A stretch of 64,000 nt of DNA from a virus, in the IMG/VR virus record IMGVR_UViG_3300033072_000139, positions 3,083 through 67,082 of that record, one strand, 5' to 3'. A program made the position numbers and the translations under genes. Below the pieces are notes generated by a model that was not told the origin of the DNA, did no database searches, and saw only the letters and a list, made by a program, of their open reading frames with translations. This document shows, piece after piece, positions 4,862 to 51,405 of this stretch. Position 1 is the stretch's first letter; the number at the start of each line of letters is the position of its first letter.

Positions 4862-4871
4862 AACTATCATC

Positions 4872-5759: not shown

Positions 5760-5760
5760 C

Positions 5761-6039: not shown

Positions 6040-6040
6040 A

Positions 6041-8934: not shown

Positions 8935-8947
8935 CAAAATAAATAAC

Positions 8948-17763: not shown

Positions 17764-18045
17764 TTACTTCTTGGTTGATTTGCCGTTCTGACCATTCCTA
17801 GCTCTATTAGAGCTTTGATGTTCCATTTTAAGTGCACCCGATTTGGTATGACTCATGTCTTTACCATCTCCATTACCATATGTGCCAGCCTTCCTATTCG
17901 CTCTGTTTAATTCAGCACGATACTTCTTCTGTTTTTCAGAAGAGCTGTACTTTTTATCGTACTCTCGCTTTCTTTTTATTGAGCTTGGGCTCCACTTGAG
18001 ACGGAGATAGCTCGGATGCTTTCCAGCGTTACTGTTTCTAGGCAT
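17764..18045 (-). CDS. Basic HNH-like protein
   Basis: RAELNRANR...GDGKDMSH...SSNRARN resembles a reduced HNH fold. Confidence 0.6.
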   Translation of the reverse strand: MPRNSNAGKHPSYLRLKWSPSSIKRKREYDKKYSSSEKQKKYRAELNRANRKAGTYGNGDGKDMSHTKSGALKMEHQSSNRARNGQNGKSTKK

Positions 18046-18073
18046 ATGTTACTAGGTTGTTCGGGTTTATTAC

Positions 18074-18220
18074 TTACCATTTTTTATATAATTCAAGCTC
18101 TGATTTAAGAGCTTCTATTTCTTTCTTCTGTCTAACTACTTTTCTATCTGAAATCATCAAAGATATAAAAAGGAATAAAATTAGTAGTACCATAGTTACA
18201 AATATTAATCGAGGTATCAT
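18074..18220 (-). CDS. Small TM + coiled-coil protein (spanin-like)
   Basis: Manually translated MIPRLIFVTMVLLILFLFISLMISDRKVVRQKKEIEALKSELELYKKW; ATGA overlap with the endolysin stop. Confidence 0.5.
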   Translation of the reverse strand: MIPRLIFVTMVLLILFLFISLMISDRKVVRQKKEIEALKSELELYKKW

Positions 18221-18813
18221 GATAACAAATTATGATATTCTTTAAAGTGTTTAATTCTATCAGGTAGACCTATAACACCACCATTCACTCTCTTTGTAAT
18301 CTTTGTTACTACGTCTTCTGATGGACCTTGGTCAGATATTGTATTCAAACCATTCTTAGACCAAAACCAAGCAGCAGAAAGCAAAGGGTACTTAGTAGAA
18401 ACCAAATCAGGATTAGCTAGGATATCATCTTCAACAGTCTTATTAAAAGCTGTGTAGTTGTCCTTACCTGTTAATTGTATATAACCTCTCCCTCTGAATT
18501 TAAAACCATCTCCACTAGCTTGATTCCCGTTACCCATTCTATTTGCGTAAACGATATTAGCAATCTTCTCAGGCTTACGTTCAAATTCTTTAGCACTTAA
18601 CGGAGTAAAATACTTCTTGAAGATATTTGATAGCCCCTTCGCGCTATAATTTAAGTTTTCTGCTGTTGCCCTAAACCCACCTGACTCGTGACCTGTTTGT
18701 GCTAAAAAATGAGCCAAACGTAACGGAGTATTTACTGCGAATTTCTCAGCAACCAATGGAATCTGAGATATAACGGAATCTGGGATATGCCCCTTTAGCT
18801 TGTCTAAATTCAT
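18217..18813 (-). CDS. Endolysin, glycoside hydrolase family 19
   Basis: LAHFLAQTGHESGGF, ENLNYS, FRGRGYIQLTGKDNY, SAAWFW, TKRVNGG. Confidence 0.92.
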   Translation of the reverse strand: MNLDKLKGHIPDSVISQIPLVAEKFAVNTPLRLAHFLAQTGHESGGFRATAENLNYSAKGLSNIFKKYFTPLSAKEFERKPEKIANIVYANRMGNGNQASGDGFKFRGRGYIQLTGKDNYTAFNKTVEDDILANPDLVSTKYPLLSAAWFWSKNGLNTISDQGPSEDVVTKITKRVNGGVIGLPDRIKHFKEYHNLLS

Positions 18814-18815
18814 AC

Positions 18816-19061
18816 CTATTTATCTTTTAAATTCTTGTTACCAAATACAGCTTCTACTCCCGTGATGCCACACATAGTCATTGCGGTATACATAAGACCA
18901 TTAAAGACAATAGGCTCAATTACAAACGTGATACCCATAACACCTGTTACGATATCAGCAAGTGCATAAAGTACCATTAAAACAAACGATACTAAACCTA
19001 AGACAGCCTTTTGATTGATGTCAGACTTATCGCTGAACATTCTAAGTAAAAACTCTTTCAT
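18816..19061 (-). CDS. Holin (2 TM)
   Basis: Two hydrophobic helices, immediately upstream of the endolysin. Confidence 0.65.
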   Translation of the reverse strand: MKEFLLRMFSDKSDINQKAVLGLVSFVLMVLYALADIVTGVMGITFVIEPIVFNGLMYTAMTMCGITGVEAVFGNKNLKDK

Positions 19062-19063
19062 AT

Positions 19064-19675
19064 CTATTTAATTTTCCAATAAATAGACGCATTTACAAAT
19101 GGAATTTTATTGATATCCACACCTGCACCTACGCCATAAACTTTATCACACTTCGTTTTTATGAGAAAATTGGTCTGTACGTTATTCACAAAGTTAACCT
19201 TATCAAACGAAGCACCCAAACCCCAGAATATTTGCGTCTTAGGTAGCTCTTTAACAATAGTTGTCTCTCTGATTGTGCGCTCTTTAACTTTAGCGTTATA
19301 TAATCTACTTACGATAGCGTTCTTGCTAATAGTATCTGTAATAGTTACATAACCTAAAGAATCATTTAGTCGTAAGGTATCCTTATATACATTCTTAGCG
19401 TAGTACGCCATAAGAATTGCCATAGTATCAATAGGTTTATCCACAGGGATTGTTACATAGATTGTGGTATCATGGTAGATGTCCTCCCCTTTTACCTTTT
19501 TGATTGTTACTTTATCCACATAAGTGGTATCAATCTCATGTTTGATAACCTCATAAGGTTTACCATTAACGTACTTAATTGTTGGAGAGAATGGGTTATG
19601 AACGCCATTAAGTTTGAAGTATAGAGCCAAAGCAACTATCATCAATAAGCCAACTACCTGTAATGTTTTCTTCAT
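19064..19675 (-). CDS. Lysis-associated spanin-like protein
   Basis: N-terminal TM, DT-rich stalk, amphipathic beta C-terminus ending YWKIK; lies in the lysis cassette. Confidence 0.55.
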   Translation of the reverse strand: MKKTLQVVGLLMIVALALYFKLNGVHNPFSPTIKYVNGKPYEVIKHEIDTTYVDKVTIKKVKGEDIYHDTTIYVTIPVDKPIDTMAILMAYYAKNVYKDTLRLNDSLGYVTITDTISKNAIVSRLYNAKVKERTIRETTIVKELPKTQIFWGLGASFDKVNFVNNVQTNFLIKTKCDKVYGVGAGVDINKIPFVNASIYWKIK

Positions 19676-19696
19676 ATTTTATAATTTAATGCAAAT

Positions 19697-20926
19697 TTAC
19701 AAATTAAATCTAGAGCCTACTAATAGGCCTATCGTCTTACTAGGCCCACCCATATACTTTAGATTGGCACTTATCCTAAACTTCTTAGATAGAGCCATGT
19801 CGAATGTATTCCCAAATATATATGATATCTGCTTATTGACATTTAAGTCCCTGGATCCCATGGCATAAGACAATGGAGACCCCATCAAGAAGAACTCAGG
19901 TATTATTGTAATCCTTTTGTTTATCTGCACAGCCCTCATTCCAAACAGCGTAACAGAGCTCATTGTAAATATCTGTTTAGCTGTCTCTGATGGTATTTTC
20001 ATACCTATAACGGCTAGATTATATCCTAGAATGTAGGATTTTACCATCGTTACATAAGAATAAGCCCCTATATGTGTGAAACTTCCATCATTATAAGCTG
20101 TTGTGTAAGAGTATGTAGATATACCACACAATTGATTATCCCTAAACTGCATTTTAGAATACCTGCTAGATAGGGCAAATTGCTTCAAATTTGACCATAT
20201 AATTGCGGTAGCCCCGTAAGATACGTCTCCTGCTAAAGACGACCTAGAAAGGCCTAAATTAGCCATTAAATTAAAGTCTCCGTTTATTACTTGTACGGAG
20301 CTTAAATCAGAAGAAAATACAATAGGCGTCATTGCTGCCTTATTGCCACCTTTTTTCTTCTCGTCTTTCTTCTCCTCCTTCTTCTCTTCCTTCTTTTCCT
20401 CCTTACTCTCCTCTTTTTTCTCCTCCTTAGACTCCGATTTTGACTCCTCCTTGCTTTCGCTTTTTGATGAACTCTCCTCACTCTTTGATGAACTACTTTC
20501 GCTTTTTGCTGAACTGCCCTCACTTTGTGACGAAGATGATGAAGAACTACCCCCACTTTGTGTAGCAGGGGCTGGCGGTGGTGGAGGCGGTGGAGCGGCA
20601 GCTGCTGTAACGCTAGCTGCAACTGCACTAGCAACTGTTTGTGTTGTTACCTGTGTTGCGACTTGAGCCACAGGGCATGGAGCAGAATACTCTGCATATA
20701 CTTGATTTATCCAAGCCATTAGAGCCCCGCTACTTACATCTGCTGAGGTAAAGTATTTTGATTTACCCATAAACACAATAGTAGTACCCTGCAACGGGAC
20801 TACAAATGTGGTTACCTTCTTAGTACATGGGTCTACGAAAGTGTTCGTAAGTATTTGAGAATACGACAATATCGGTAGTAATGCTACTGATATGTAAAGT
20901 AAAATAAACTTATTTCGTAAATACAT
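19697..20926 (-). CDS. Secreted outer-membrane beta-barrel-like protein with Pro/Ser/Glu-Lys linker
   Basis: Signal peptide ending SYSQ, N-terminal Cys pair, poly-P/S/EK linker, amphipathic beta strands ending GSRFNL. Confidence 0.6.
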   Translation of the reverse strand: MYLRNKFILLYISVALLPILSYSQILTNTFVDPCTKKVTTFVVPLQGTTIVFMGKSKYFTSADVSSGALMAWINQVYAEYSAPCPVAQVATQVTTQTVASAVAASVTAAAAPPPPPPPAPATQSGGSSSSSSSQSEGSSAKSESSSSKSEESSSKSESKEESKSESKEEKKEESKEEKKEEKKEEKKDEKKKGGNKAAMTPIVFSSDLSSVQVINGDFNLMANLGLSRSSLAGDVSYGATAIIWSNLKQFALSSRYSKMQFRDNQLCGISTYSYTTAYNDGSFTHIGAYSYVTMVKSYILGYNLAVIGMKIPSETAKQIFTMSSVTLFGMRAVQINKRITIIPEFFLMGSPLSYAMGSRDLNVNKQISYIFGNTFDMALSKKFRISANLKYMGGPSKTIGLLVGSRFNL

Positions 20927-21623
20927 TCTTTTTAACCATTCTACTTAGGATGCGAGCGCACGCAATATCTAACGCTTTTTTAGTTGCTGTTCCTATGGTA
21001 GATTGATTAAATTTAACTTCTGATAGATTAGCGTCATTTAGTAAACTAGCTTCTCTAGTAGTCTTTGCTTCGCCTAACCCAGATGCTGCAATAATCTCTC
21101 CTGTTTCTGCGTTAGTAAATCTAACTTGCAGACCTATACGAGTCACTACAGTCTCCTTTATTCCGTCTTTTACTTTGATTTCCTCGTCTTCAGATATGCT
21201 GTAATCGTAGCACTCTATTTCAACAAAATAGTGAGCTAGTCTAATCTTTCCTCGTCCGTCCAACTTATCTTGAGTGATTCCTGACTGGCTAGCTTGGAAC
21301 TGCTTAACCATTCTATTCTTAATCTCTGTCTTGTCTTCTGTAAACGTGAATCTATTGAGGTTTTCAAGATATTCCAACGTGATATTAGCAACCCCGAGAC
21401 CAACTCTTTTCTCTTTGAGCTCAGGGTATTGTTCGTACATTTCATCTGATATTCCGCATTTAAGGATTTGTATTGGTATAGTAGGTCCATCATAATCTAA
21501 GAACTGACTAATATCAATCTTAGTCTCAAAGCTAGCCTTGTATTGCTCTGTAGAGGTTTTGGCAACCTGAGCTTGTAACAAATTTGTATATAAAAATGTT
21601 ACGAGTATTAGTATCTTTTTCAT
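20910..21623 (-). CDS. CsgG/HfaB-like secreted protein
   Basis: Signal peptide; RVGLGVANITLEYLENLNRF...GRGKIRLAHY...IGLQVRFTNAETGEIIAASGLGEA...TKKAL follows the CsgG pattern. Confidence 0.7.
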   Translation of the reverse strand: MKKILILVTFLYTNLLQAQVAKTSTEQYKASFETKIDISQFLDYDGPTIPIQILKCGISDEMYEQYPELKEKRVGLGVANITLEYLENLNRFTFTEDKTEIKNRMVKQFQASQSGITQDKLDGRGKIRLAHYFVEIECYDYSISEDEEIKVKDGIKETVVTRIGLQVRFTNAETGEIIAASGLGEAKTTREASLLNDANLSEVKFNQSTIGTATKKALDIACARILSRMVKKNVFTK

Positions 21624-21856
21624 TAACGTCTTCTTTGGTGGATTACAGGACCCCTAGGTATATTATATATAATTCTTGGTTGAGCCCAATAGTTTTGGAA
21701 TCCCCAAAAAGGGTCGAAATTATGCATATAAAAATCTTCATATATGATTCTCTTCCTAACCTCAACAAGCTTAGTTGTATCTTTTGGGTCTATGTAAACA
21801 TATTTCACAGGAGCGCATCCTACTAATAGTAGGGCTAGTACTATTATATTTTTCAT
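21623..21856 (-). CDS. Small lipoprotein
   Basis: Lipobox LLLVG-C; aromatic/Pro-rich tail. Confidence 0.65.
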   Translation of the reverse strand: MKNIIVLALLLVGCAPVKYVYIDPKDTTKLVEVRKRIIYEDFYMHNFDPFWGFQNYWAQPRIIYNIPRGPVIHQRRR

Positions 21857-22455
21857 TATGCTTTATCTTTTAAAAGTCCACAAATTTGACATTCTAATTC
21901 TCCATCATTATCCGCATCTCCCCACTGATGTTGGCATTGTCTATGTGCATGAAATTCAAACTCTAGTTTTTCCATTTCTTGCTCATGCTCTTGCTTGTCT
22001 ACTTCCATAGCTTGTCTATGCTCTTGCTCATCTTTGCTTAAGTCATACTTCTGCTTATTTTCAACAACAGCCAAATCTCTAGCAGCTTGAGCTCCTGCAA
22101 CAAATGCATCTGGAATAGCAGGTCCAGCTGGCTTGTTAGTCTCCTTCATATCATTTGCATGAGATAGAGACACACCATCTTCTTCGTCCATTTTTTGAAC
22201 GAGTAGCTTATCCTTATCTGCATCAGAATAATAGTAGTCTATAATCTTGTTATAGCTACCGCTAAAAACTCCGACTAATAACAATAATATTTCCCTTAAT
22301 CCCGCAGGAATCTCTATACCAATTGCAACTGCTACAAATAGCCCTAGCAATATAAGTACAAATATTCCCAATACGATGGCTGTTACATACCATCTTTTTT
22401 GCATTAAATTATTTAACAGGTCTTTGAATCCTGAAGCTTGTTGATTGTTGTCCAT
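21856..22455 (-). CDS. Two-TM membrane protein with C-terminal coiled coil and Cys motif
   Basis: Two hydrophobic helices; CQH...CQIC at the C-terminus. Confidence 0.7.
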   Translation of the reverse strand: MDNNQQASGFKDLLNNLMQKRWYVTAIVLGIFVLILLGLFVAVAIGIEIPAGLREILLLLVGVFSGSYNKIIDYYYSDADKDKLLVQKMDEEDGVSLSHANDMKETNKPAGPAIPDAFVAGAQAARDLAVVENKQKYDLSKDEQEHRQAMEVDKQEHEQEMEKLEFEFHAHRQCQHQWGDADNDGELECQICGLLKDKA

Positions 22456-22556
22456 GCGTTACTTATTACTTGTTGATTATGCTTTATGATTGCCGAAGTC
22501 TTTAATCCTGACTTCCTGCTTCTCATTGGTTTCTTTTTCTTCTGTGCGTTTGCCAT
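22413..22556 (-). CDS. Small basic protein
   Basis: Manually translated MANAQKKKKPMRSRKSGLKTSAIIKHNQQVISNAWTTINKLQDSKTC. Confidence 0.4.
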   Translation of the reverse strand: MANAQKKKKPMRSRKSGLKTSAIIKHNQQVISNAWTTINKLQDSKTC

Positions 22557-22559
22557 ATA

Positions 22560-22874
22560 TTACCATTTAGGAGCTTCTTCCTTAAACTCATCACCTTCCT
22601 TCTTCTTGACTTTAGGTTCAGCAACTGGTTTAGCAACAACTTCTTTTTCTTTAATAATTACTGTCTTACCCCCACCACTAGCTTGTTGAGCCTGTTGGTT
22701 TGAGTTAGTAATGTTGATTACGGGTGCAGGTGCGGGAGTTGCCTTATCGTCGCTTCCACCACCAAATAATGTTGATCCTAACCAAGCACCACCTGCTGTT
22801 ACAACTGTAGCCAAAGTACCTACAACGGTTTTTTTTAGACTAGACATTGTGCCTTCTTGTTGTTCTTCTGACAT
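22560..22874 (-). CDS. Single-TM membrane protein
   Basis: VVGTLATVVTAGGAWLG helix followed by a low-complexity tail. Confidence 0.65.
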   Translation of the reverse strand: MSEEQQEGTMSSLKKTVVGTLATVVTAGGAWLGSTLFGGGSDDKATPAPAPVINITNSNQQAQQASGGGKTVIIKEKEVVAKPVAEPKVKKKEGDEFKEEAPKW

Positions 22875-22879
22875 AAAAT

Positions 22880-23242
22880 TTATTTTATAATTATAGGGTA
22901 TTTAACTTCTTTCCCATCAATATCTATAAAAATAAGGTCATAATCTTTCTTATCCAAATTTGATAGGTCTAATACTTTTGTCGTTACATCACTATTCGCT
23001 GTAAAGCCCTCTTTTCTTACAGGTTGGTCTGAGCCAAAAGGAACTATCTGCAAAGAATATTTTGACCCCACAGTAGTGCTAAATTCAGCCGTAATTACGT
23101 TACCCGATTCGCGAATTGACTTTATACCTGTTGAGGTAGATTTAACGCCTAAATCAATTACTTCTGGCACAACTAAATCAATCTTAGTACAAGCCATCAT
23201 GATAAACGTTACAATGCAAACTAAAACGAACTTTCTTTTCAT
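22880..23242 (-). CDS. Lipoprotein with T9SS-CTD-like Ig domain
   Basis: Lipobox IMMA-C; C-terminus LDLSNLDKKDYDLIFIDIDGKEVKYPIIIK resembles the type IX secretion sorting domain. Confidence 0.55.
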   Translation of the reverse strand: MKRKFVLVCIVTFIMMACTKIDLVVPEVIDLGVKSTSTGIKSIRESGNVITAEFSTTVGSKYSLQIVPFGSDQPVRKEGFTANSDVTTKVLDLSNLDKKDYDLIFIDIDGKEVKYPIIIK

Positions 23243-23243
23243 A

Positions 23244-25319
23244 TTAAAAATTTTTATAACCTGTTAGTTTAATTTGAGTTGAGTTTAAGTTAATGCCTAA
23301 TTGATTACCCTTATCGTCGCTAGCGTCCATTACCTGAGAAACTCTGATAGAAGTTACCATATCAACACCACTTTCTTTTGCAGAGAATTTAAGCTTAAAT
23401 GGAACGCTTGCTCCTTTGATTGGAAGAGATTTCGTTTGGTCTAAAGAGCCAAATTTAACCCTTCCATTCTTACTATCTGCAAAGATATACCAAGAATTAG
23501 GAACACTAGCGACAAGTTCTTCGAATTTCAATTTAGATTCATCAAAAACAAACTCAAACTGAAGACCGCTCATGTTAGCTCCATTTGTATTTATAGCAAC
23601 AGGAACCTCTATGCTGTTAGATGTAATGGTCATGTTAGATAATGTTACATCTATAGCCAAAACATCATTAGGTGTATTTATATATCCTCCTGTAGAGTTT
23701 ACCTGAACAACAGGACTTCCATTGTCTGATACGATAACCTTAGATGAATGCGACCTATTAACATCTCCCCATAACAAATACTTTAAGTCTAAAAACTGAT
23801 TTGTGCCAATAGCTCCCGTTTTTAAGTACAACTTAGGCATGGTAATTGTTTTCCAATTCGCTGATGTAATAGACCCCCAAGAGTTATTAGGGTTTACATT
23901 AAAATCAAACTCAGCCTGTAAAGCATAGTCGGTATTCGTATTATTAATATTTCTAATATTCCCAAGATATAAAGAAGTACCATCTGCAACCTTTGACATG
24001 CTAGACGGAACTTTAAAGAAAGCCCAAGAACCATCTTCGCTTATGTACTCTACAGGTCCAGAATAAATATCAAATATCTGTAAGCTCTTTATCTGACTAG
24101 GAGAAACACCTGTACCTGAGAACTCACGCATGTCTATATACAACCTACTAACGCCTTGACCATAGCTGTTAGGATTGATTATACACCACTCTGTTTGACC
24201 TGCATAGCTTGATGCGTCTGTAGCTTTCCATGTAGGTATGCTCATATATCCACCACTACCCCTTACATATTGACTAGGTAGAGCAACTAGAGTATCCAAC
24301 CCTGCAATCTGAGCAAGTAGTCTAGGCAAATCACCGCCATCAATCTTTTGGTTTCTATTGATATCGGCAGCATATAATGACTGACCCGTCTTTAGATTTT
24401 GACCATTAGATCCATCTAGACCCATGCTAGTAAATTCACTTTGAGCTGTTGTGAAATCTGATATAGTTATTGCATTATTGTAGATATCGTATAACTTATC
24501 CATTTCATACATAACAGAAACATCATACACCTTATTAGGAGCTAGTGAAGATTGGCTAATGTCTACATCTCCTGTTGATGTAACATTGAATAACTGCCCC
24601 TGATTTGTGGCCGTATCTCTAAAAGATACTTTTATAGAAGAAAGGCTATATAATGCAGAACTTAAATCAACTTTAGCTGTAACATACTTACCATAGTTTT
24701 GGTTCATGTAAACAGATGTTGATGTTGGAGTTTCCATAATAGTAGGAGTCTCTACACCTGTGCTTGTCCAACCTGCAACAAAGTTTAACTTAATTGGATT
24801 AAACGTATAAGCAGTACTCGTTGTTTTCAATCTGAATTTAATAACAATAAGTCTATCATATCCAGTGTAAGGCATCGTAGAAGTGGTAGCCCATGTTAAT
24901 GTAGCTCTGATAATTGCATTATCTCCATTAGTACCATTGTATGTATAGTTCTGATTTTGGTAGTTTGTAGTACCATTAGAAGTGCTATTCTGTGCATTGG
25001 AATTCCATGTATAGTTAGGGTAATTTGTCCAAGATAGCTGTATTGTAGAACCTTGTGGTAATATACCACCATTACCACCCGTACCTGTATGATTTATTGA
25101 CACTATCTCAAAGTTCTTTTGGTCATACATTACATCAAATAGCAATTGCTTAGTAGTACTATTGCTGTTGCCGTTAGCCTGTATGATATACTCGAATTCT
25201 GTACCTCTGTTTAGGTATGTGCCACCCACTGAAGACAATGCTCTAAACTTAATTTGAGCATCAGAAGATGTCACAAATATTTGAAAAATTGTGACAAGAA
25301 ATAATAGTTTTTTAATCAT
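23244..25319 (-). CDS. Secreted cohesin-dockerin-cohesin-like protein
   Basis: Signal peptide; cohesin-like LLFDVMYD..FEIVSI and IEVPVAI...SGLQFEFVFDESKLKF; dockerin/EF-hand-like ITISDF...AADINRNQKIDGGDL and GDVNRS. Confidence 0.65.
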   Translation of the reverse strand: MIKKLLFLVTIFQIFVTSSDAQIKFRALSSVGGTYLNRGTEFEYIIQANGNSNSTTKQLLFDVMYDQKNFEIVSINHTGTGGNGGILPQGSTIQLSWTNYPNYTWNSNAQNSTSNGTTNYQNQNYTYNGTNGDNAIIRATLTWATTSTMPYTGYDRLIVIKFRLKTTSTAYTFNPIKLNFVAGWTSTGVETPTIMETPTSTSVYMNQNYGKYVTAKVDLSSALYSLSSIKVSFRDTATNQGQLFNVTSTGDVDISQSSLAPNKVYDVSVMYEMDKLYDIYNNAITISDFTTAQSEFTSMGLDGSNGQNLKTGQSLYAADINRNQKIDGGDLPRLLAQIAGLDTLVALPSQYVRGSGGYMSIPTWKATDASSYAGQTEWCIINPNSYGQGVSRLYIDMREFSGTGVSPSQIKSLQIFDIYSGPVEYISEDGSWAFFKVPSSMSKVADGTSLYLGNIRNINNTNTDYALQAEFDFNVNPNNSWGSITSANWKTITMPKLYLKTGAIGTNQFLDLKYLLWGDVNRSHSSKVIVSDNGSPVVQVNSTGGYINTPNDVLAIDVTLSNMTITSNSIEVPVAINTNGANMSGLQFEFVFDESKLKFEELVASVPNSWYIFADSKNGRVKFGSLDQTKSLPIKGASVPFKLKFSAKESGVDMVTSIRVSQVMDASDDKGNQLGINLNSTQIKLTGYKNF

Positions 25320-25804
25320 AATAGCTTATTAACCAATGAATTACAAGACTTTTTAATTGCCGTGCTTAGATTCTGTTGGTTAAACTTGCCATCGTTGCTA
25401 ATGATGAGTGTTGATGTTGATACTTCTGTTGCTTGTTCTTCTACGATACACTCTTTAGATTTTTTACCATCTTTAATTATGTATCCTTTCATTCTAATAA
25501 CAACAGCGTTATCATCCTTATGGAATATGGATAAGTTGCTCTTCGTGCTTAACACATCCATATAAATAAGTTCTGCAAATATCTGATTTTTTGAGCTAGG
25601 AGACAAACTATACCCGCTCTCTTGCAAATACTCTTCTAGTATATTCTTTACGCCAAACTCTAGCTTTCTGTTGCCAGCTAGAGGGCCTAGTTTTATTGAG
25701 TTCTTTACTTCCGCAACAACAATATCTTGTGAATACGCAAGTACGCAAAATAAGAAAGCCCCCAATGTTAGGAGGCTTTTCTTATATGACTTAAATAGTA
25801 ACAT
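25316..25804 (-). CDS. Secreted CsgG-related alpha/beta protein
   Basis: Signal peptide ending AYSQ; LEFGVKNILEEYL and KFNQQNLSTAIKKS parallel the 20910 protein (KFNQSTIGTATKKA). Confidence 0.55.
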   Translation of the reverse strand: MLLFKSYKKSLLTLGAFLFCVLAYSQDIVVAEVKNSIKLGPLAGNRKLEFGVKNILEEYLQESGYSLSPSSKNQIFAELIYMDVLSTKSNLSIFHKDDNAVVIRMKGYIIKDGKKSKECIVEEQATEVSTSTLIISNDGKFNQQNLSTAIKKSCNSLVNKLL

Positions 25805-25805
25805 A

Positions 25806-26246
25806 TTAAATTTCTACAACTTGTGCTACTTCATCTTCGTCTTCTTCTTTAAGTTCAGGGAACTCAAGACCTTCAACAAATCCTTCTAAAAATGCATACA
25901 TTTCGATGCCTTCTGTAGAGAATGTAAACTGATAAAACTCAAATTCTTCAGTTAATAAGGTCTTAACCTTCTTGTTAAGTTCTTTTAATTTGTCTTTTGT
26001 AAACTTGTAACCTCCATTCTCATCTAATAACAAAGAACCATCTTTGTCTGTATTAGCGCAATCTAGACGGATGTCCTCTAGTTTCTCATTGTAGGTATCT
26101 AAATGAGATTTTAATTTTTCACCAATTTTTTGTAATTTTTTAACGCCTTTTGTATTTGCGTCAGCGTGCTCTTTGTTATTTACAAGCACATTTACTGCTC
26201 GAACTACATTAAGTAGATCTTGGTAGGTTTTTTTAACTTTTGCCAT
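25806..26246 (-). CDS. Acidic helical protein (possible tail chaperone)
   Basis: ATG at 26246 after the TATATTTG element at 26265-26272. Confidence 0.6.
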   Translation of the reverse strand: MAKVKKTYQDLLNVVRAVNVLVNNKEHADANTKGVKKLQKIGEKLKSHLDTYNEKLEDIRLDCANTDKDGSLLLDENGGYKFTKDKLKELNKKVKTLLTEEFEFYQFTFSTEGIEMYAFLEGFVEGLEFPELKEEDEDEVAQVVEI

Positions 26247-26310
26247 GTTTTTAGGTTTGTCGTACAAATATATATTAACTAGTACTTATAAGCAAATATT
26301 TTGCCAACAA

Positions 26311-26526
26311 TTAAAACCTGCCATCTGGACAAGGATTTTCTCTAGGACTGAATACTTTACCCTTTAAAAGACAACCGCATATGCCACACCTTTCAACGAG
26401 CAATTCTTTAGTAATGTGCTCACAAGAATGACATATGCTGAGTCTATTTGCAGCCAATTCACGCTGCTCATCTGTAGGGGTGAATGAAATAGCCCAAGAT
26501 TTAATAATCTCTTCTATTTGATTCAT
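26311..26526 (-). CDS. Small Cys-rich metal-binding protein
   Basis: RLSICHSC...RCGICGCLLKGK...CPDGRF. Confidence 0.7.
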   Translation of the reverse strand: MNQIEEIIKSWAISFTPTDEQRELAANRLSICHSCEHITKELLVERCGICGCLLKGKVFSPRENPCPDGRF

Positions 26527-26541
26527 ATTAATTTTATCGAA

Positions 26542-26838
26542 TTAAGGAGCTTCTGGAGCTGATAGAATTGTTTCAGTTTGATTTTCAGACTTAGTTAATC
26601 CTAATTGGTCAAGAACATCCGCTTCTACTGCTGCCCAATTAACACCTGTTGCAGTGATACCTTCGGTAACTACAAGAGATTTGTTAGCAAAGCTAGTTGA
26701 ACTTGACATCATATTTACCCATACATTAACTTGTGTTGCGAACAATTCGCAGCTTCCGCTAATGCTTACTTTTGTAACCGTTCCGATAGATGAGCCATTG
26801 ATTTCAATGCTTGCTGGTTCTACATAAATTGTTTTCAT
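26542..26838 (-). CDS. Hypothetical tail-associated protein
   Basis: 98-aa ORF downstream of the tail fibre genes. Confidence 0.6.
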   Translation of the reverse strand: MKTIYVEPASIEINGSSIGTVTKVSISGSCELFATQVNVWVNMMSSSTSFANKSLVVTEGITATGVNWAAVEADVLDQLGLTKSENQTETILSAPEAP

Positions 26839-27063
26839 TTTTATTATTTTAATTTACAAATATACTTATTATATCCTGACAATTCATATTTTATGACGCC
26901 TGTAATCAAAATAATTACAATAAAGCTCATTAATAACATGCTATTTTCAATACTTGAAAAGTTCTGAACAGGCTTGATTACGAATTCAAAATTATTTAAA
27001 TTATACGATGTATCTGCTATTTCTTCCATTTTATTTTATTATTTTACAAAGGTAATTATTATA

Positions 27064-27909
27064 TTAACTTGCTGTGTCTTGCGAGTATAAGGTAGATACC
27101 TCTGAGCCTGAAAGAGCCCTAGAGTAAAGCCTTACGACCTCTATATACCCTGTATAGAATTCTGCTGTATTCGTGCCAAACCCTGCATTATACTGAGCAC
27201 CAATAAGAAATAACCCAGGAGCTGCATAGTTCATTGTAACAGATATAGAAGATGAGCTTACTAGAGAGCCGTTTACATATAATCTTGCTGTAGAGCCATC
27301 GTACGTTAAAACAGCGTGAATCCATGTATTCAAAGAAAATGAATAGCTAGTATCTACATAGGTGGTTCCGCCCCCAGAAATTCTCCCGTATAGGGTTGTA
27401 CCATATGTCCATAGCTGGTAACCTTGATATGTAGGAGTTTCGCCATTAAAGTTATTACCTGCTAAAATCATAGGGTAAGATGACTCTGTTGGGTAGAAAT
27501 ACACATCAAGAGTTACTCTATTTTGACTATTTACTCTTCCAAATTGGTAGTTAGGGAAACTTACATATCCGCCATACTGATAACTTGAGTAAGCATTAGA
27601 ACCTTGAAAATAAAACCCAGAACCAGTCCAACTAGGATTAGATGCATACTTATTAGTCAGCGTTCCGTTATTACCTTTCCCGCTAATATCGTACCAAGTA
27701 GACCCACTTCCAGGATATGATGATGGGCTGCTTGACCTTAGATGCAACAAGAAATCAGGGTCTGAAGCACTATAGCCATAAAACTCACTGATGGAATCAG
27801 GAGTACTAAACCCAGCTAAAGAGCTGAGTGTTCTTAGGCTACCTGAGCTACTGCCTAGTTCTGTACGTATAGCCCCGATTCCTAAAGGCCCGCTACTTGG
27901 TAATGCCAT
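27064..27909 (-). CDS. LamG/concanavalin A-like domain tail protein
   Basis: SYPGSGSTWYDISG, WIHAVLTYDG...LYVNG, VRLYSRALSGSEV. Confidence 0.85.
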   Translation of the reverse strand: MALPSSGPLGIGAIRTELGSSSGSLRTLSSLAGFSTPDSISEFYGYSASDPDFLLHLRSSSPSSYPGSGSTWYDISGKGNNGTLTNKYASNPSWTGSGFYFQGSNAYSSYQYGGYVSFPNYQFGRVNSQNRVTLDVYFYPTESSYPMILAGNNFNGETPTYQGYQLWTYGTTLYGRISGGGTTYVDTSYSFSLNTWIHAVLTYDGSTARLYVNGSLVSSSSISVTMNYAAPGLFLIGAQYNAGFGTNTAEFYTGYIEVVRLYSRALSGSEVSTLYSQDTAS

Positions 27910-30900
27910 TTAATTGTCCTTTAAGATCTTCAATTTGTTTCTGTTGTTCTTTTATAGCCTCTACAAGCAATGCAGTCATATTTTGATATTTAACACTCTT
28001 AAGGCTATCTTTTCCTGTAACAACTAATTCTGGAACGGTTGTTTCAAGCTCTTGAGCAATGAATCCAATATTGTCTTTTGTGCCAGAGTCTATTCTATCA
28101 TATAAAACACCTCTTGAAGAAAGAACTCTTTCTAATGGGTTATCTATTGAGCGAATATTTTCTTTCACAGATGCGTCTGAATATGCTGTAATATCATTAC
28201 CTGCATATATATATCCTGTTGTGTTAAAACCAGTGTATTGTGGACCTATATTATTTAACCCAGGAGATAGAGTGTATACTGAGCCAGGGTCTGTTGTTTG
28301 CTGCCAACTAGTACCTACGCTACCGCTCCCTCTCTTGATCATGTATCTGTAATCAACACCAGCATAAACTCTCATGTAAAACCAATACCCTCCACCTGCC
28401 AAGTCTCTTGACCCTGCGTGAGTTATCCATCCACTTCCAGGAACACTTCCGTGTTCACCATATAAAATTAAAGCTCCTTGCTGGCCCCCGTGCCACTCTC
28501 TACAATAAGCAGTAACATCCATCGAAGGTCCACCATATGGGCTTGAGCCATTCCAAAAAATTGCTCTTGAGATACTGAATCTTACAAAATCACCACCTGC
28601 ATTAAACTCTCCCATAGGTATCCTTAGCCATACATAACCAGACCCATCAGGAGATGACGGAGCAGTAAATACACCATCATATTGGTACTCTAGATTAGGT
28701 TTTGAAGACACATTATTCCAAGAAACAGAATTTGCAGAGCCAGCGGTATTAGCATAGTTTACCGATTGAGAACCAATATTACCAGAATGAATAACAGTAT
28801 AATCAGAGCCTCCTCCATAAGTGCCACTTGAAATATACATATTGCCACTGCTCCATCTAAACTGCCATCCATAATCATTGTGATGGAAGCCTGATGTTGT
28901 AGCATTTGACATGAGATTAGTATTATAATCCGTAAATCTAATACCAGCCCAACCATTCTTACTATTTGTCATTTGAAGAGCTCCATAAGAGCCTGCATTT
29001 GGTTGAATATGTCCTGCATTGCTAAAATACAATGAACCTACATAGTCTACTGAAGCTCCACCCATATGCAAGCTTTTACCATTATAAGATTCTATATAAC
29101 TAGAACCTGTCATTCTCCACCCGCCACCATAAGATTCAAAGTATAAACCAGAAGACCCAGCTACTCTAATCCAATCAGACGAGTATAAACTACCATAAAC
29201 TTGAAGCTGATATCCATTGTCGGAATCAGAACCAAAAGAAGTTCTTCCGCTTGCATGCATGGCTGCAGCAAAAGTTCCATTGATTGAACTAAAATCAGAT
29301 GTATTGTTTGTATAAAAATATAGTTTACCTCCAGGATTAGTCCTTCCTGCTACAATGTAGTTGCCTCCGTTATTACCAAGTTGAAGACCGTACCAGTTTA
29401 AAGATGCATGATATACATCTGAACCAGCTGTATAACGTGCTCTAAAATGATAACTACTATTATATGTTCTAATATCAGCAGTATCATTGATAGAGTTTAC
29501 GTTAAGATACATTGTACCATATAACCAGTTGGTTCCTGTACTATATATACCAGCAGGATGATAAGTAGCTTGACCTGTTCCTCCAACATTTGCATTACCT
29601 CTAAAAGCAGCTGCATAAACTGTTTGGCTAGTATTAACATTACCACTTGTATCAAGTGATAGCGCAAGAGTACCACCCATTCCACTATATATATAGCCTG
29701 ACGTACTACCATTTACATAAAATCTTTGATCAGTACTTGATGTAAATGAAGTGTGTCCATCCCCAGTAGACCAACCGGCAGTGCCTCCATCAGACTCTTT
29801 CATTCTAATAGAAACTACATCATTAGCTTCAAATATAACAGTATCATATGCGTAGTCTGGAGTACCACTGTCCCAACCTTTAGAAACTCTTAATGCAGGA
29901 CCTGCTTCACTGTTTCCTGAACTATGTTGAATAAATACTTTCCTTAAACGAGATGTACTATTAGGATCTACGTAATAAGATGTATCATTAGAATCGTAAA
30001 ATATAGGAGCACGCATAGAAGCGTTAGCCTGCCAAACGCCATTATTTAATATCCATCCTGATGTATATGCTGCACTAAAATCAGTTCCGCCAACTCCTCT
30101 TCTAAACACCCAACCTCTACCATCGGTATCCATTGTGAGATAAGTATTGTAGCCATCCCCGAATCCCGTTGGATTACCAAACGCTCCACCATTAGCTTTA
30201 AAGCCTATAGCAGATGTTGTACTATTCCCTGCGCCCCAGAAGAATATCTGATTATCTGTACCATAACTATTATTATCTCCTCTAATTGCAATACCGTACA
30301 TTCTACTTATACTAGCAAAGTCGCCATAATATCCTGTATCATTAGAATCATAAAATATTGGGGCTCTAAAAGACTCTACTGCTATTGCAGTATTTCTTAC
30401 ATTAATAACATTCGATTCCCCTAGATACATATCTTGAGTACTGCTATGAGCATACCAATGCTGAGATTGCAATACATAGAATGATGTATCCCACCTTGGA
30501 CCTGTAATACTTGTATATTGTGAGTGTATATAGTTTACATTTATTTGATACATCCTAGATGTACTATCAAAGTCTCCGTAATATGAAGTGTTAGCAGAAT
30601 CATAGAATACAGGAGCCCTCCACGAACCAGTAGCCGTACCTACGCCATTATCTGCATCTAAAAATACTTTTGCTGAACCTTGACCAGCTACTACGTATAA
30701 ACCCCATGCCGTTGAAGCACCTAATCCAGCAACTCCTCCATAGGTATACCCAATACCATACATGTTATTTAACGAGGAAGATGTTGGAACATAGCTTCCA
30801 CCAATTGAATATATGGCACCTGAAGTTGCTGTACTTTCGGCTGTTCCGTAGTTTCCGCTTAACCAACCTTGACCTGCACCTTGTCTTACAAGTGCAGAAT

Positions 30901-35893: not shown

Positions 35894-38800
35894 CTATTGT
35901 TCTAGCCCGCCAGCTTCTCTCATAGCTTTTTGCTGTTCTTCAAGTCTTGCAGCTTCCTCTTCGGCAATTCTAGCCTCTTCTTCTTTATTACTAAACTCAG
36001 TGTATATTTTAATGAACTTATCAAGTTCTTTTCTATCCAACTTATCAGCAAAAAGTTTAATACCCTCGTCATTAAGCATCTTAAGGTCTAGAATACTACG
36101 CACCTTCTTAAAGAATCTATCAGAACCTATCTCCTGCTTTGTTCTCATTAAAGACTCTACCTTCTCTGCAGGCTTAGTTAAAGAGAATGCTCTGTATACT
36201 TTTAGGGCATCTTGGTCATTGTTAGACATAGCCACCATGAAAGCAACCGTGCCGCCATCAATAACACCTAATTTAGGGTCAGATATCTGGTCAATCTCTT
36301 TAGACCAAACATCAGTTCCATACTTATTCTTAAGGTCTAATAGGTATTTAGCTCTAGATTCAGGGTCTTTAAACTTAACAGCCTCAGCAGCAGCTTGACT
36401 AATCGTTTTATTGTCAACTATTGTTGGCTTTTGCTCCTCAAGAGGAACTGCGCCAATAGCCTCGTTAACTAAAGCTTTTTCTTCTGACATGCCCCTAGCG
36501 CTTATATTCTTGATAATCTTATTTGAAATATTAGCCACATCTGAAAATCCTAGGGTACGACCTACTATTGTAAGAGGCATCCAAGACATAGCAATTTTCT
36601 TATCATCTCCTGTAAGTTTTTTAACCTGCTCTTCTCCAAATGGGTCTTCTGTCTTAACTTCTCCACTAACAGCTATATCATTATACTTAGAAGCATCCAT
36701 TATATTTTTAAGTAATATACCGCCTACTCCATAGTTCTTAGCCCATGCATCCTGGCCTCCGCCATCATATAACCTAACCTCAAATGCTTTTGGTGTATTA
36801 GGGTCTATTTTTTCTAGCCCAAAATTAATTAACTTATCTAGCCCATCATTCACAATAGGGTGTGGAGATATTAAGTCATTAGTCAAGTTTGTAAGAGTTG
36901 TCTTTTGAGAAGATAAAGCCCTTCTTCTTTTCTCCTCTTGAGAAGGAGTGGTGTTTGACATCTTATCTGCAATACCCCATTGTATATTATTAGCCATCTG
37001 CCATATAGCATTATATACAAACATCTCTGCAGCAGTTCCTGCTAAAGACTTCATAGCTAATCCTCTATCTTCTGCAGAAACTCCCTTCCCTGTAGCAACT
37101 CTAATATTACCGCCAACTTTTGCCTTTTGGTTCATTGTGTAGTTCGCTAGAGTCATTACTGTATTCTTAAACAATTTATGATAAGGGTCTTGGGATCCAA
37201 TGAATGTTCCTTGTAAATCTGTATCAGATACGTTTTGGCTAACGTTTGTCATATGTTCAGCGTAATCTGCTGCATCTTTATTTACTTCATGAGTATTCCA
37301 ATCGAGATTAGACACATCTTCTCCTTGCTGCCTTAATTTTTGTTTATAATAAGATAGCCAAGATAACCTAGCCGTAAATATATCAGAATACCCAACAGCT
37401 ATTCTTAATTTAGCTTCTTGTATCTTACCTAATCCGGTTATGCCTCTCATTAAAACGTTATTATCCGCCTTTCTTAACATTGACGATACGCTTTCCATAT
37501 TAAATTGAGACCCAATACCTCTATTAGATATGCCATATCCTATTTTATTCAACCAATCATGAGCATCGGCATTAAGAGCATCACTTATTTCTAATTTTCC
37601 ATTATTGGCTATAAAAGTATGAGCTATTGGAGCCAATTGCTTAAATGGCTGCGCAAAAGAAGATAGTGCAGTAGATACAGCTGTTGTTGCTGCTGCAGAT
37701 AAAGACCTTCCAACTTGACTAAGTTCTCTCGATTCAGCTATATCCCTATTCTGTATTCTCTTAGCATAAGTGCTAATCTTGCCTTTAAAAACATCTCCAT
37801 CTTCTTTATTAAATATTTTATCAAAAAATGGAGAATCTCTAAATGCCTTAACTTGTCTTAAGTCTTTAGCTGTATGTATATTTGTTAACGCTGTCTTGAG
37901 AGCTCTATTACTATTATAGTCAAAATCTAAATCAATGAACTTACCATTAGGCAATATCTCAGGGTCAGTTGTCTTCATCAATGTTCCACTCTTTGCGTCA
38001 GGTATGTAATCATAACTAGAGAAATATGGATTTTCAGACAATGGGTCCATAGATTCGGGTATCTCATTTTTATCGAATTTACCATAAGTATCTTGAGTGT
38101 AGTTATTATGGAATCCTAAATCCTGATTATATATATTTAGATTAACATCTCTCATTTTTTCATAATGCTTGCCCCATTGATTAGTCCACCAATTAACTGC
38201 TTCTAAGTTTATTGCATCTGCCTTAGATTCTACATCTAATGAATTATTTGAATCCTTTACAAGTTTATCAAAAGCTGTTTGATACAAATCAGCCATCTTA
38301 GCATAATCTCCACCCTTACCTCTTAAAGCCACAATACTCTCTTCTAATAAAGTTTTTCTTCTATTAAACTCTTTAGAGATAGCGGCTTCATCTCCACCCC
38401 TATTCCTTCTCATAAAGGCTAGCATACCCCTTTCGTATATGTTCTCTTTTGAATCAAATCTTAATCCATTTGGATTAGTTTTAGATTTTAAAACTCCACC
38501 ATATTTTCCAATAAACTTATCTGTATATTCCTTAGATGCTTCTTGATAAATCTTCTCTGCAATATTTTTATTTCTCATCAAAGATGAAATACCCATTGCT
38601 TTCTGGACCTCTAATGACCTGTTAGCCCCAAATGCCTTATCAAATAATACAGGTAAGCTAGTCATGTCTGCAGCAAACCATCTAGCTGCTCTTTTGCCGA
38701 AAATGCCTTTTATTGTCAATGATTTTACTCCTTTAGATTGAAGGGCTTCACCACCTTGATAAGCCTCCCCCAACGCAATTACAGAATCAAGGTTAGACAC

Positions 38801-47643: not shown

Positions 47644-47683
47644 ATTAATTAATTTTTATTGTCAAAGATACAATTTTATTGGT

Positions 47684-51377: not shown

Positions 51378-51405
51378 AATGGTTTGTTTTATGTTACAAA
51401 TATAA

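Follow-up and report, generated by a model that had tools for sequence, protein, structure and literature searches.

A phage cassette of exported proteins with a CsgG homologue, a predicted outer-membrane barrel and a cohesin/dockerin-like protein beside the lysis genes

The locus and its proteins

The DNA analyzed here, called the window throughout, is a stretch of 64,000 nucleotides covering bases 3083-67082 of the 67,082-base IMG/VR virus record IMGVR_UViG_3300033072_000139 (estimated completeness 57%), and our subject is a cassette of nine open reading frames (ORFs) at positions 19697-25804 of the window, all of which lie on the minus strand and either overlap by 1-43 nt or are separated by gaps of 1-5 nt (Table 1). 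The plus strand up to approximately 17.1 kb carries early genes (primase/helicase, Erf-type annealing protein, exonucleases, methyltransferase), and the minus strand, followed from approximately 63.9 kb down to 18.07 kb, carries the terminase, portal and structural proteins, a protein of 2069 amino acids (aa), a 1893-aa tail fibre, the cassette and the lysis genes, so that this gene order places the cassette at the far end of the late strand. An earlier annotation made from the letters of the DNA, referred to here as the sequence-only reading, had described eight tightly packed or overlapping genes plus a tiny basic ORF between the tail fibre and the lysis genes. The genes and their coordinates were confirmed, as was the position next to the lysis genes, but the cassette does not adjoin the tail fibre (27893-33574) directly, because a LamG-type protein and four small genes (25806-27909) intervene.

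Export signals were called from hydropathy and by inspection of motifs by eye. Cleavable-type signals were found on the 162-, 691-, 237- and 409-aa proteins and a lipobox Cys on the 120- and 77-aa proteins, while the 104-aa protein has one weak Gly/Thr-rich segment, the 199-aa protein has two hydrophobic segments and the 47-aa protein has none of these. In agreement with the sequence-only reading, eight of the nine products thus carry a signal peptide, a lipobox or a membrane segment.

The 237-aa protein is a true but atypical homologue of CsgG, as indicated by its family profile, by Pfam matches of family members and by its fold. A profile built from 38 full-length members, which are 20-90% identical to the window protein, matched E. 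coli CsgG in the PDB with an E value of 1.5e-5, and the Pfam CsgG family (PF03783) was matched by 18 of the 38 members, the best at 3.7e-23. The AlphaFold2 (AF2) model of the protein had a predicted local distance difference test (pLDDT) value of 84.2 and a predicted template modelling score of 0.76. The ten top Foldseek matches to this model were all CsgG (E 9e-7 to 5e-6, template modelling (TM) score 0.39-0.48), and so were the eight best rows in VIA (Z 10.9-12.2 over 156-176 residues, root-mean-square deviation 3.3-4.4), which were followed by Cj1090c, PelC (Z 10.1), LptE (Z about 9), FlgT and TraT. The best structural match in BFVD was the CsgG of an uncultured phage (E 6.2e-7), and a language-model atlas likewise pointed to CsgG. 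The family is large, with 5191 relatives at E ≤ 0.001 in public metagenomes by a word-indexed search and 223 cluster representatives by an exhaustive search. A cluster look-up for ten distant CsgG-like relatives returned names no more specific than "hypothetical protein". As a separate observation, the CsgG-like domain was found fused to a caspase (Peptidase_C14) in three and to a Ser/Thr protein kinase in two of the distantly related proteins P0201, P0221, P0227, P0252 and P0264.

In CsgG, two amphipathic hairpins form a 36-stranded transmembrane barrel, and the loop that narrows the pore presents the residues Tyr, Asn and Phe. The protein of the window shares with E. coli CsgG, the curli (type VIII) secretion channel (PDB 3x2r, 4uv2, 4uv3, 6l7a), the profile homology and the fold, which extends over residues 34-237, but appears to differ from it in each of these respects. 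Its model has one long hairpin (132-171) with a tip rich in Glu, Asp and Lys, and the second hairpin is not predicted, its place being taken by a single strand and a low-confidence loop. In the family alignment Tyr-Pro alone is kept of the pore-narrowing loop, with the Asn replaced by a non-polar or charged column and the Phe being an insertion in CsgG. By eye, no canonical lipobox was seen in the window protein or in its homologues of the 80 loci described below, in which an Ala/Ser/Gly-Gln type site precedes a conserved mature start; among more distant family members (P0132 onward), 28 of 31 have a lipobox-like Cys. Since the lipid anchor is missing and the hairpins do not look membrane-spanning, the secretion-channel role of CsgG, which the sequence-only reading had cited, cannot be carried over to the 237-aa protein. 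No Pfam match at E ≤ 0.1 to CsgE, CsgF, CsgA, CsgB or FapA-E was found among the 18 proteins encoded at 18074-27909.

For the 162-aa protein the direct signals were weak. Pfam Lipoprotein_16 was matched at E 0.0073 (2.3e-5 to 2.2e-4 for three homologues), and hhalign of the 162-aa against the 237-aa family gave a probability of 64% and an E value of 6.4e-5 over 25 columns at a loop-helix motif. The hidden Markov model (HMM) of the 237-aa family reached 4 of 55 homologues, at E 0.04-0.09, the leads in the atlas were DUF4410 (0.90) and a CsgG/LptE cluster (0.89), and a search of the PDB with the family profile returned nothing useful. The 170-aa proteins of a distant clade of loci (P0137), however, matched both the 237-family HMM (E 1.7e-15 to 5.5e-12, in two stretches) and the 162-family HMM (E 3.1e-14 to 8.4e-11), and because these intermediates match both, the 162-aa protein is a shortened CsgG-like paralogue, linked to the family by way of them.

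The 409-aa protein is composed of a signal peptide, a small Cys-containing N-terminal domain (residues ~25-80), a Pro/Ser/Glu/Lys linker (~108-196) and a C-terminal 12-stranded barrel (~200-409), and its AF2 model, built from a 46-sequence alignment, predicts an outer-membrane protein ending in a 12-stranded barrel of the FapF/autotransporter type. In the model the N-terminal domain has four strands and two helices with pLDDT 66-86, the linker (108-196) is below 50, the helices before the barrel are of low confidence, and the barrel itself has 77-91 over most 10-residue blocks. Foldseek placed FapF first (E 3e-7 to 1e-6, TM score relative to the target 0.50-0.57), with autotransporter beta-domains, NanC/KdgM and PelB lower; the VIA scores were Z 22.2 for EspP, 21.9 for NalP, 17.5-18.1 for FapF and 17.0 for KdgM, all of which are 12-stranded barrels. 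Since the autotransporter barrels outscore FapF in VIA, the match is one of fold class only. Pfam (E ≤ 0.1) gave no match to FapF or autotransporters, and the PDB-profile search gave none beyond low complexity. In FapF, as laid out in the accessible part of its description (PMC5557850), a periplasmic N-terminal domain is followed by a disordered linker, then a plug and a 12-stranded barrel, and the 409-aa protein resembles it in having an N-terminal domain, a long disordered linker and a 12-stranded barrel, but there is no sequence homology, no Fap gene was recognized by Pfam, and the N-terminal domain is a small Cys-containing alpha/beta domain and not a coiled coil. The type Va autotransporters EspP and NalP, in which a linker helix occupies the pore of a 12-stranded beta-domain behind an N-terminal passenger, gave the best VIA scores, but again Pfam gave no match, and the "passenger" of the 409-aa protein would be only ~60-70 residues long and not large.

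The 691-aa protein has, in this order, a signal peptide, a weakly cohesin-like N-terminal domain, a dockerin-like calcium loop (residues ~280-352), an insert (~373-476) and a C-terminal cohesin (569-675). The C-terminal domain matched Pfam Cohesin (PF00963) with 28.2 bits against a cut-off of 24.1 (E 2.4e-6). The signals for the N-terminal domain (22-215) were weak (Pfam Cohesin E 0.21 and 12.2 bits; PDB cohesins E 0.23-0.77; hhalign of the N- against the C-terminal domain 12%), are collinear and mutually consistent, and lend weak support to a second cohesin. The segment ~280-352 is kept in 21 homologues with invariant Asp/Asn loop positions, and a profile of 22 homologues matched the ScaH dockerin (8ajy_B) at E 9.5e-8, with two dockerin stretches falling on one query stretch, and other dockerins at E 0.19-1. 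Pfam Dockerin_1 gave no match to the 691-aa protein; of the duplicated calcium-binding loop-helix (F-hand) motif that characterizes dockerins, the first repeat is degenerate and has no loop pattern. The evidence is consistent with a dockerin-like calcium loop. In comparison to known cohesin-dockerin pairs, cellulosomal and non-cellulosomal (ScaH dockerin 8ajy, C. cellulolyticum cohesin 2vn5), the likeness lies in a cohesin above the cut-off and a probable dockerin-type calcium loop with a helix, and the differences are that both modules reside in one phage protein, that the first repeat is degenerate, that no enzymes are attached and that the envelope concerned is that of a diderm cell with a type IX secretion system (T9SS). 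The middle segment 373-476 is also present in proteins of other loci that otherwise differ. The weakly cohesin-like domain is interrupted by a low-complexity insert of ~40 residues, which is rich in Asn, Tyr, Thr and Gln and is encoded at 24900-25100 on the minus strand.

The 120-aa protein following it belongs to a family in which the lipobox Cys is invariant, and Pfam Por_Secre_tail (PF18962), the T9SS sorting domain, was matched by 11 of 33 family members and positional relatives at E ≤ 0.05 (best 6.7e-6). Its C-terminal position agrees with that of a sorting domain, but the lipoprotein lacks the cargo that would precede such a domain. A PDB search with the family profile returned nothing useful. 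In a sister clade (P0132), Por_Secre_tail stands directly behind the cohesin in all 57 distinct cohesin proteins (best 8.2e-14), and the 120-family HMM aligned to the sorting domain of these fused proteins (7 ORFs at E ≤ 1e-3). A free 120-like ORF was found in none of the 88 loci of the two deeper clades, and fused cohesin proteins were found in none of the loci of the window's clade. In 40 of the 50 loci with full flanks (see below), cohesin-ended proteins and free ORFs resembling the sorting C-terminal domain (CTD) were equal in number (1:1 in 23 and 2:2 in 17), the other ten having 1:2 in five, 1:0 in four and 0:1 in one. By these comparisons of sequence the 120-aa lipoprotein is the split-off counterpart of the fused CTD, produced by gene fission. 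The fission links the 691- and 120-aa proteins to each other and the cassette to the T9SS of the host, and, taken together with the match to a cultured Flavobacterium phage given below, it places the host, by inference, in the Bacteroidota.

The remaining products are small membrane proteins and lipoproteins. In the 104-aa family an acidic N-terminus is followed by a Gly/Thr-rich segment, a linker rich in Pro, Ala, Gln and Lys and, at the C-terminus, an invariant short motif ending in Trp; the protein looks like a tether with a docking peptide. In the 199-aa family a near-invariant N-terminal core comprises the two hydrophobic segments and an acidic tail; forms of ~110-120 aa consist of this core alone, and in longer forms it is followed by a His/Cys motif that encloses a DxDxDG loop. 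The window protein, which has this motif in its C-terminal 40 residues, matched PHROG 38564, a family of unknown function (E 3.3e-7). Some homologues have two extra acidic DGDG-type loops before the His/Cys motif. A dockerin at the C-terminus of the 199-aa protein was considered and rejected, the DxDxDG loop lying inside a metal-knuckle-like His/Cys motif and being absent from the short forms. A spanin pair formed by the 199- and 77-aa proteins was likewise dropped. A two-component spanin consists of a single-pass inner-membrane protein and a small outer-membrane lipoprotein whose genes stand together, and here the small lipoprotein is rare: of 75 loci, 9 (two doubtful) have an ORF of this kind flanked by the 199/104 gene and the 237 gene, and a homologue of the 77-aa protein is present in 5 of the 50 full-flank loci, so that no conserved pair was found.

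Downstream of the cassette, the endolysin matched Pfam Glyco_hydro_19 (E 1.6e-10) and PHROG 181, endolysin (E 2.1e-69). By hydropathy and alignment, proteins of the 81-aa family have two or three hydrophobic segments and end in a charged C-terminus; the family had no Pfam match and a PHROG match in 0 of 25 family members, and we call it holin-like from these features and from its position, its gene being directly upstream of the endolysin gene both in the window and in a sister-clade locus (L142). The 203-aa protein, which is anchored at its N-terminus and has a C-terminal half rich in strands, is found in 19 of the 50 loci next to the 81-aa and endolysin genes and may be a further lysis or envelope component.

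At the level of the individual proteins, nearly all of the sequence-only reading was borne out. The CsgG-like protein at 20910, the beta-barrel with a long P/S/EK linker at 19697, the lipoprotein resembling a free-standing T9SS sorting domain, and the small lipoprotein together with the one- and two-segment membrane proteins were all recovered, the barrel with 12 strands in the AF2 model, Foldseek and VIA. Its CsgG-related protein at 25316 holds by way of the intermediate sequences, the direct signal being weak, and of its cohesin-dockerin-cohesin protein the C-terminal cohesin and the dockerin-like loop stood, while the N-terminal cohesin stayed weak.

Table 1. Features of the cassette and of the adjoining region (positions in the window)
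Positions	Strand	Feature	Basis
26317-26333	-	Terminator-like hairpin just upstream of the promoter-like motif	
26265-26296	-	Bacteroidota-type promoter-like motif (TTTG, spacer, TAnnTTTG)	Ahead of the 153-aa gene preceding the cassette
25316-25804	-	162-aa exported protein, shortened CsgG-like paralogue (probable LptE/YajG-type fold)	Signal peptide, HMM intermediates
23244-25319	-	691-aa secreted multidomain cohesin/dockerin-like protein	Pfam, profile
22880-23242	-	120-aa lipoprotein, one T9SS-sorting-domain-like beta-sandwich	Lipobox, family HMM
22560-22874	-	104-aa protein, Gly/Thr-rich membrane segment	Alignment
22413-22556	-	47-aa basic protein with no export signal; conserved small gene, position varies	tblastn
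21856-22455	-	199-aa membrane protein, two hydrophobic segments	Alignment
21623-21856	-	77-aa small lipoprotein, accessory member	Lipobox
20910-21623	-	237-aa CsgG homologue, best conserved cassette protein	Profile, fold
19697-20926	-	409-aa predicted outer-membrane protein, 12-stranded beta-barrel	AF2 model, Foldseek, VIA
19064-19675	-	203-aa protein, N-terminal membrane anchor, travels with the lysis genes	Hydropathy
18816-19061	-	81-aa holin-like protein	Hydropathy, alignment
18217-18813	-	Endolysin of the glycoside hydrolase family 19 (GH19) type	Pfam, PHROG
18074-18220	-	48-aa single-pass membrane protein overlapping the endolysin stop	Hydropathy; homologue in 4 of 80 loci

Conservation of the cassette and its linkage to lysis genes

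Relatives of the 237-aa protein were found in 557 IMG/VR loci. The proteins of the window were compared by tblastn with the best 80 of these 557 confirmed loci, a sample biased to close relatives of the 237-aa protein, and 50 of the 80 loci have full flanks. Among these 50 loci, the cohesin protein and the 104-aa protein were found in all 50, the 162-aa protein in 47, the 409-aa protein in 43 and the 199-aa protein in 35, followed by the 81-aa protein (30), the 47-aa protein (24), the 120-aa protein (22), the endolysin (21) and the 203-aa protein (19), in comparison to 11 for the tail fibre and 5 each for the 77-aa and LamG proteins; the flanking genes were mostly unshared. The gene order was kept in 40 of the 41 loci that hold the 162-, 691-, 104-, 237- and 409-aa genes together, with all matches on the same strand, and the 47-aa gene stands downstream of the 237 gene in some loci. 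The recurrence of homologues in the same order in related contigs, which range from ~46 kb to 287 kb, shows that the cassette is not a chance assembly.

The core set extends over three deep clades, between which the CsgG-like proteins are 37-43% identical. In the P0132 clade, whose CsgG-like protein is ~42-43% identical to that of the window, family HMMs detected in 80 loci the barrel in 74, the 104-aa protein in 79, the 199-aa protein in 67 (~120 aa long there), the 81-aa protein in 60, the cohesin protein in 75 and the 162-aa protein in 27. In the P0137 clade, represented by 8 loci, the same HMMs detected the barrel in 6, a 162-like protein in 6 and the cohesin protein in 5, and the 104-, 199- and 81-aa proteins in none. 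A scan of 185,579 species genomes for close relatives of the 237-aa protein returned a single contig of 2.7 kb, and the contrast of 557 viral loci with this one short contig makes the close family look phage-specific. A megablast search of the region against 50,697 phage records gave no match. The strong co-conservation of the cassette genes, in the clades as well as in the cultured phage described next, answers the synteny check that the sequence-only reading had proposed.

The closest cultured counterpart is the Flavobacterium phage vB_FspM_immuto (NC_055915, 160 kb), in which gp015 is a cohesin protein, gp016 is 104-like (58% identity over 48 aa), gp017 is 237-like (51% identity), gp018 is like the N-terminus of the 409-aa protein and gp019 is 162-like. 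It differs from the window in that the cassette is surrounded by genes for replication and nucleotide functions, with the endolysin ~6 kb away, and that the 162-like gene comes last. These genes are annotated merely as hypothetical or "cohesin domain-containing", and the papers naming immuto, judged from their listing, appear not to treat gp015-gp019. Since immuto and its host Flavobacterium sp. LMO8 form a cultured pair with the core genes, the system is directly testable.

Six loci of large phages were annotated, and the neighbours of the cassette there were glycosyltransferases, a metallophosphoesterase, thioredoxin, nucleases and Fe-S genes. Cohesin-ended paralogues in these loci carry PA14 or C-type lectin domains. 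In the loci L035, L043, L066 and L026, GT2/GT4 glycosyltransferases, an NAD-dependent epimerase and a metallophosphoesterase stand beside or inside the cassette; in L026, a TonB-dependent-receptor-like gene (Plug plus outer-membrane barrel, 4431-6710) lies inside it and an ORF with a FeoA domain (8839-9075) follows the CsgG-like gene. These large-phage neighbours suggest a wider surface-sugar modification island.

Linkage to lysis genes recurs outside the window. A homologue of the GH19 endolysin was found in 26 of the 80 loci, and in all 26 it lies at most 1.8 kb from the cassette, being placed upstream, downstream or inside in at least five arrangements. The 81-aa gene is inside the cassette in 23 loci and outside or beside it in 20. 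The 162-like gene of L142 is followed by the 81-like gene and then by the endolysin (PG_binding_1 plus GH19); a 401-aa exported protein of no known family, which has no counterpart in the window, is encoded there between the barrel and 162-like genes (L142:10050-11255).

In the window, the genes from the promoter-like motif (Table 1) to the endolysin overlap or stand at most 21 nt apart, and from this layout we infer that the motif may be the promoter of a co-transcribed cassette-plus-lysis unit. The promoter pattern had 7 matches in comparison to 2.79 expected, a number reached in 2 of 100 shuffles. Two more minus-strand matches lie in late-gene gaps (47663-47695 and 51397-51430). A sigma-70 promoter scan, uninformative for Bacteroidota, found 32 sites in comparison to 39.7 in shuffles. 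A look-up of sequencing runs for positions 18000-27999 listed three DNA runs from one study and no RNA run.

Proposed role and competing explanations

Literature searches, which did not cover the supplementary gene tables of flavobacterial phage papers, returned no description of this combination of genes, in line with the statement of the sequence-only reading that no such system had been described; phage csgG/csgF clusters and phage T9SS cargo are partial precedents. According to the accessible parts of two reports (PMC7029224, PMC9004378), csgG/csgF clusters of unknown function are present in pelagimyophages (HTVC008M group) and in the OM43 phage Melnitz, and the roles suggested there include lysis control, uptake and host aggregation. 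As far as those parts describe them, these clusters resemble the present cassette in that a phage CsgG homologue stands in a small operon of exported proteins and curli subunit genes are absent. They differ in that the window has no CsgF match, its CsgG-like protein is unlipidated, the hosts would be Bacteroidota rather than SAR11 or OM43, and the cassette goes beyond those clusters with its 12-stranded barrel, its cohesin/dockerin proteins, its T9SS sorting domain and its inner-membrane proteins. The second precedent is the "Cryophage", for which the accessible text of Bellas et al. 2020 (PMC7468147) describes phage-encoded variable T9SS cargo including a PA14 protein. Products with T9SS sorting domains are common to both, and relatives of the cassette carry PA14 or lectin domains and its sister clade true sorting domains, but the Cryophage cargo is described there as single genes, not as a cassette with a CsgG-like protein, a barrel and cohesins, and the sorting domain of the window forms a lipoprotein by itself.

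We tentatively favour, with a probability of roughly 0.4, the reading that this is a phage-borne, Sec-exported cassette acting on the envelope of the infected Bacteroidota cell by late remodelling and cohesin/dockerin display, likely masking receptors or glycans near lysis; what we infer here concerns localization, contacts between the parts, timing and benefit to the phage, whereas the folds and homologies, the fission, the co-conservation and the linkage to lysis genes are shown by the analysis. The T9SS sorting domain, which is fused behind the cohesin in sister phages and in the window would be supplied as the split-off 120-aa lipoprotein of the next gene, would help to bring the 691-aa protein to the outer membrane or to keep it there. 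The 409-aa barrel, the non-lipidated CsgG-fold 237-aa protein and its short paralogue of 162 aa may form an outer-membrane or periplasmic platform resembling PelC-PelB or LptE-LptD, in each of which a small lipoprotein works with an outer-membrane barrel. The likeness to these pairs is that a small protein of the same fold class accompanies a barrel, the 237 gene overlapping the barrel gene; it can be taken as analogy only, since the present barrel is 12-stranded and the 237-aa protein is not a lipoprotein. The inner-membrane proteins of 104, 199 and 81 aa could tie the assembly to the inner membrane and to the timing of lysis. The surface of the dying cell and its debris would thereby be coated or altered, in relatives by way of exchangeable lectin domains, and such a coat could mask receptors or glycans against superinfection and loss of progeny. 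The cassette would most likely be made late, together with the lysis genes, and would not be part of the virion. The sequence-only reading had arrived at the envelope targeting and at the components, and had missed the link to the host T9SS and the recurrent interleaving with lysis genes; the self-assembling trans-envelope or surface complex that it proposed is hypothetical.

Several observations weigh against this proposal. The assignments of two key proteins come through their families, the window's own 237-aa protein having no Pfam or PHROG family match and being assigned from the family profile and the model, and the window's 120-aa protein having no Pfam match, including to Por_Secre_tail, and being assigned through the family profile. 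With no lipobox, and no clearly membrane-like hairpins in its model, the outer-membrane seating of the 237-aa protein is not explained. The 691-aa protein itself lacks a sorting domain, and that a separate lipoprotein replaces the fused domain is an assumption; further, the dockerin-like profile of the window's clade was found in 1 of 80 loci of the P0132 clade, so the cohesin-dockerin pairing may not be a conserved contact. The assignment of the host is indirect. In large phages, genes for glycosyltransferases, nucleases and thioredoxin surround the cassette and the 8-kb flanks contain no endolysin homologue, and where holin-like and endolysin genes are linked to the cassette, the linkage fits a role in lysis itself equally well.

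This last point leads to the main rival, which we regard as possible though less likely, namely that the cassette is lysis or egress machinery, an outer-membrane-breaching or lysis-timing device replacing spanins, with the 199-, 81- and 104-aa proteins as holin, antiholin or tether and the 237-, 409- and 162-aa proteins and the lipoproteins as its outer-membrane end. The lysis genes adjoin or interleave with the cassette in several independent arrangements, in the window they form one co-directional packed run with it from the promoter-like site at 26296 to the endolysin, and Pfam and PHROG scans recognized no canonical spanin pair in the region. The core of the 199-aa protein, with two hydrophobic segments and an acidic tail and existing as a ~110-120-aa form, would suit such a device, as would the 104-aa protein, which resembles a periplasm-spanning tether, and a lysis-related role was suggested for phage CsgG/CsgF in the accessible part of Buchholz et al. 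(PMC9004378). A role in lysis is not obvious, however, for large secreted proteins that combine T9SS sorting domains with cohesin, lectin or PA14 domains; a small lipoprotein in the spanin position was seen in only 9 of 75 loci, neither the 81-aa nor the 199-aa family matches a named holin family, and the P0137 clade keeps the CsgG-like, barrel and cohesin proteins without the 104-, 199- and 81-aa genes. A more ambitious form of the display idea, which we consider doubtful, is a portable phage export and display apparatus, in which a CsgG-type ring without lipid anchors would combine with a FapF/autotransporter-type 12-stranded barrel and with tethers in the inner membrane. In cooperation with the host T9SS, or by hijacking it, this hybrid would plant a self-linking cohesin-dockerin scaffold with exchangeable lectin heads and would be switched on with lysis. 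Export of an unfolded fibre substrate by the CsgG homologue and the FapF-like barrel, serving aggregation or "sibling capture", appears improbable. The closest structural relatives, CsgG and FapF, are both exporters of functional amyloid as described in the accessible part of PMC5557850, sibling capture was proposed for the curli genes of pelagimyophages in that of PMC7029224, and an Asn/Tyr/Thr-rich insert in the N-terminal domain of the 691-aa protein and a Gln/Asn-rich stretch in the 104-aa protein could be read in the same sense. The 237-aa protein, however, has no lipid anchor, a charged hairpin tip and no predicted second hairpin and does not keep the pore-narrowing residues except Tyr-Pro, the barrel matches autotransporters better than FapF in VIA, and neither a Pfam match to CsgA/B/E/F or FapA-E nor a repeat-type amyloid subunit gene was seen.

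Two further explanations deny that the genes form one apparatus of the cell envelope. That the locus is a moron hotspot, at which unrelated envelope-targeted accessory genes gather at the end of the late operon with no joint machine, is in our estimate equally improbable. The accessory content does vary, as with the 77-aa lipoprotein, the 47-aa gene, the TonB-dependent-receptor-like gene of L026 and, within the block of L035 and L043, genes for glycosyltransferases and phosphoesterases, but the core order is kept across clades whose CsgG-like proteins are 37-43% identical and on contigs of ~46 to more than 280 kb, and the fission/fusion relation together with the matched numbers of cohesin proteins and CTD-like lipoproteins argues for partnership. 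Least probable by far is that the products are ordinary tail or decoration components of the virion encoded behind the tail fibre. The cassette does lie at the distal end of the structural gene strand, and cohesin, lectin and LamG-type domains are also found on phage fibres (compare the neighbouring 281-aa protein). Against this, tailed virions are assembled in the cytoplasm, whereas the Sec signals, lipoboxes, barrel and T9SS domains would lead these products out of it. In immuto and other large phages the neighbours of the block are not structural genes but serve replication or the metabolism of nucleotides and sugars, and none of the nine products matches a structural PHROG, save a low-complexity match of the 409-aa linker. 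The same export signals, barrel, T9SS domains and non-structural neighbourhood in large phages favour the view of the sequence-only reading that the products are probably targeted to the envelope rather than to the virion.

The thousands of relatives, the 557 loci and the very different genome sizes point to a major unexplained function of environmental Bacteroidota phages. If the favoured remodelling of the surface, or else a control of egress, is what the cassette performs, this bears on the lysis of T9SS/gliding-type cells, on the exclusion of competitors, on the protection of progeny and on the use of host secretion systems by phages. The export and display apparatus, if real, would represent a class of secretion and surface-assembly system that is encoded by viruses and is new. 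In addition, a CsgG homologue without its lipid anchor and a sorting domain that has been split off offer natural experiments on the working of these modules.

Neighbouring genes

The gene directly preceding the cassette (25806-26267, minus strand) encodes a 153-aa coiled-coil-like protein with no export signal, which belongs to PHROG 1401 (unknown function) and is common to 5 of the 50 loci. Its listed TTG start overlaps the promoter-like motif, and the true start may be a later ATG. Further up the late strand, two giant proteins are encoded on the minus strand: the 2069-aa protein (35894-42103), for which no PHROG match at E ≤ 1e-5 was obtained, and the 1893-aa tail fibre, which contains runs of short Ser/Ala/Thr/Tyr-rich repeats.

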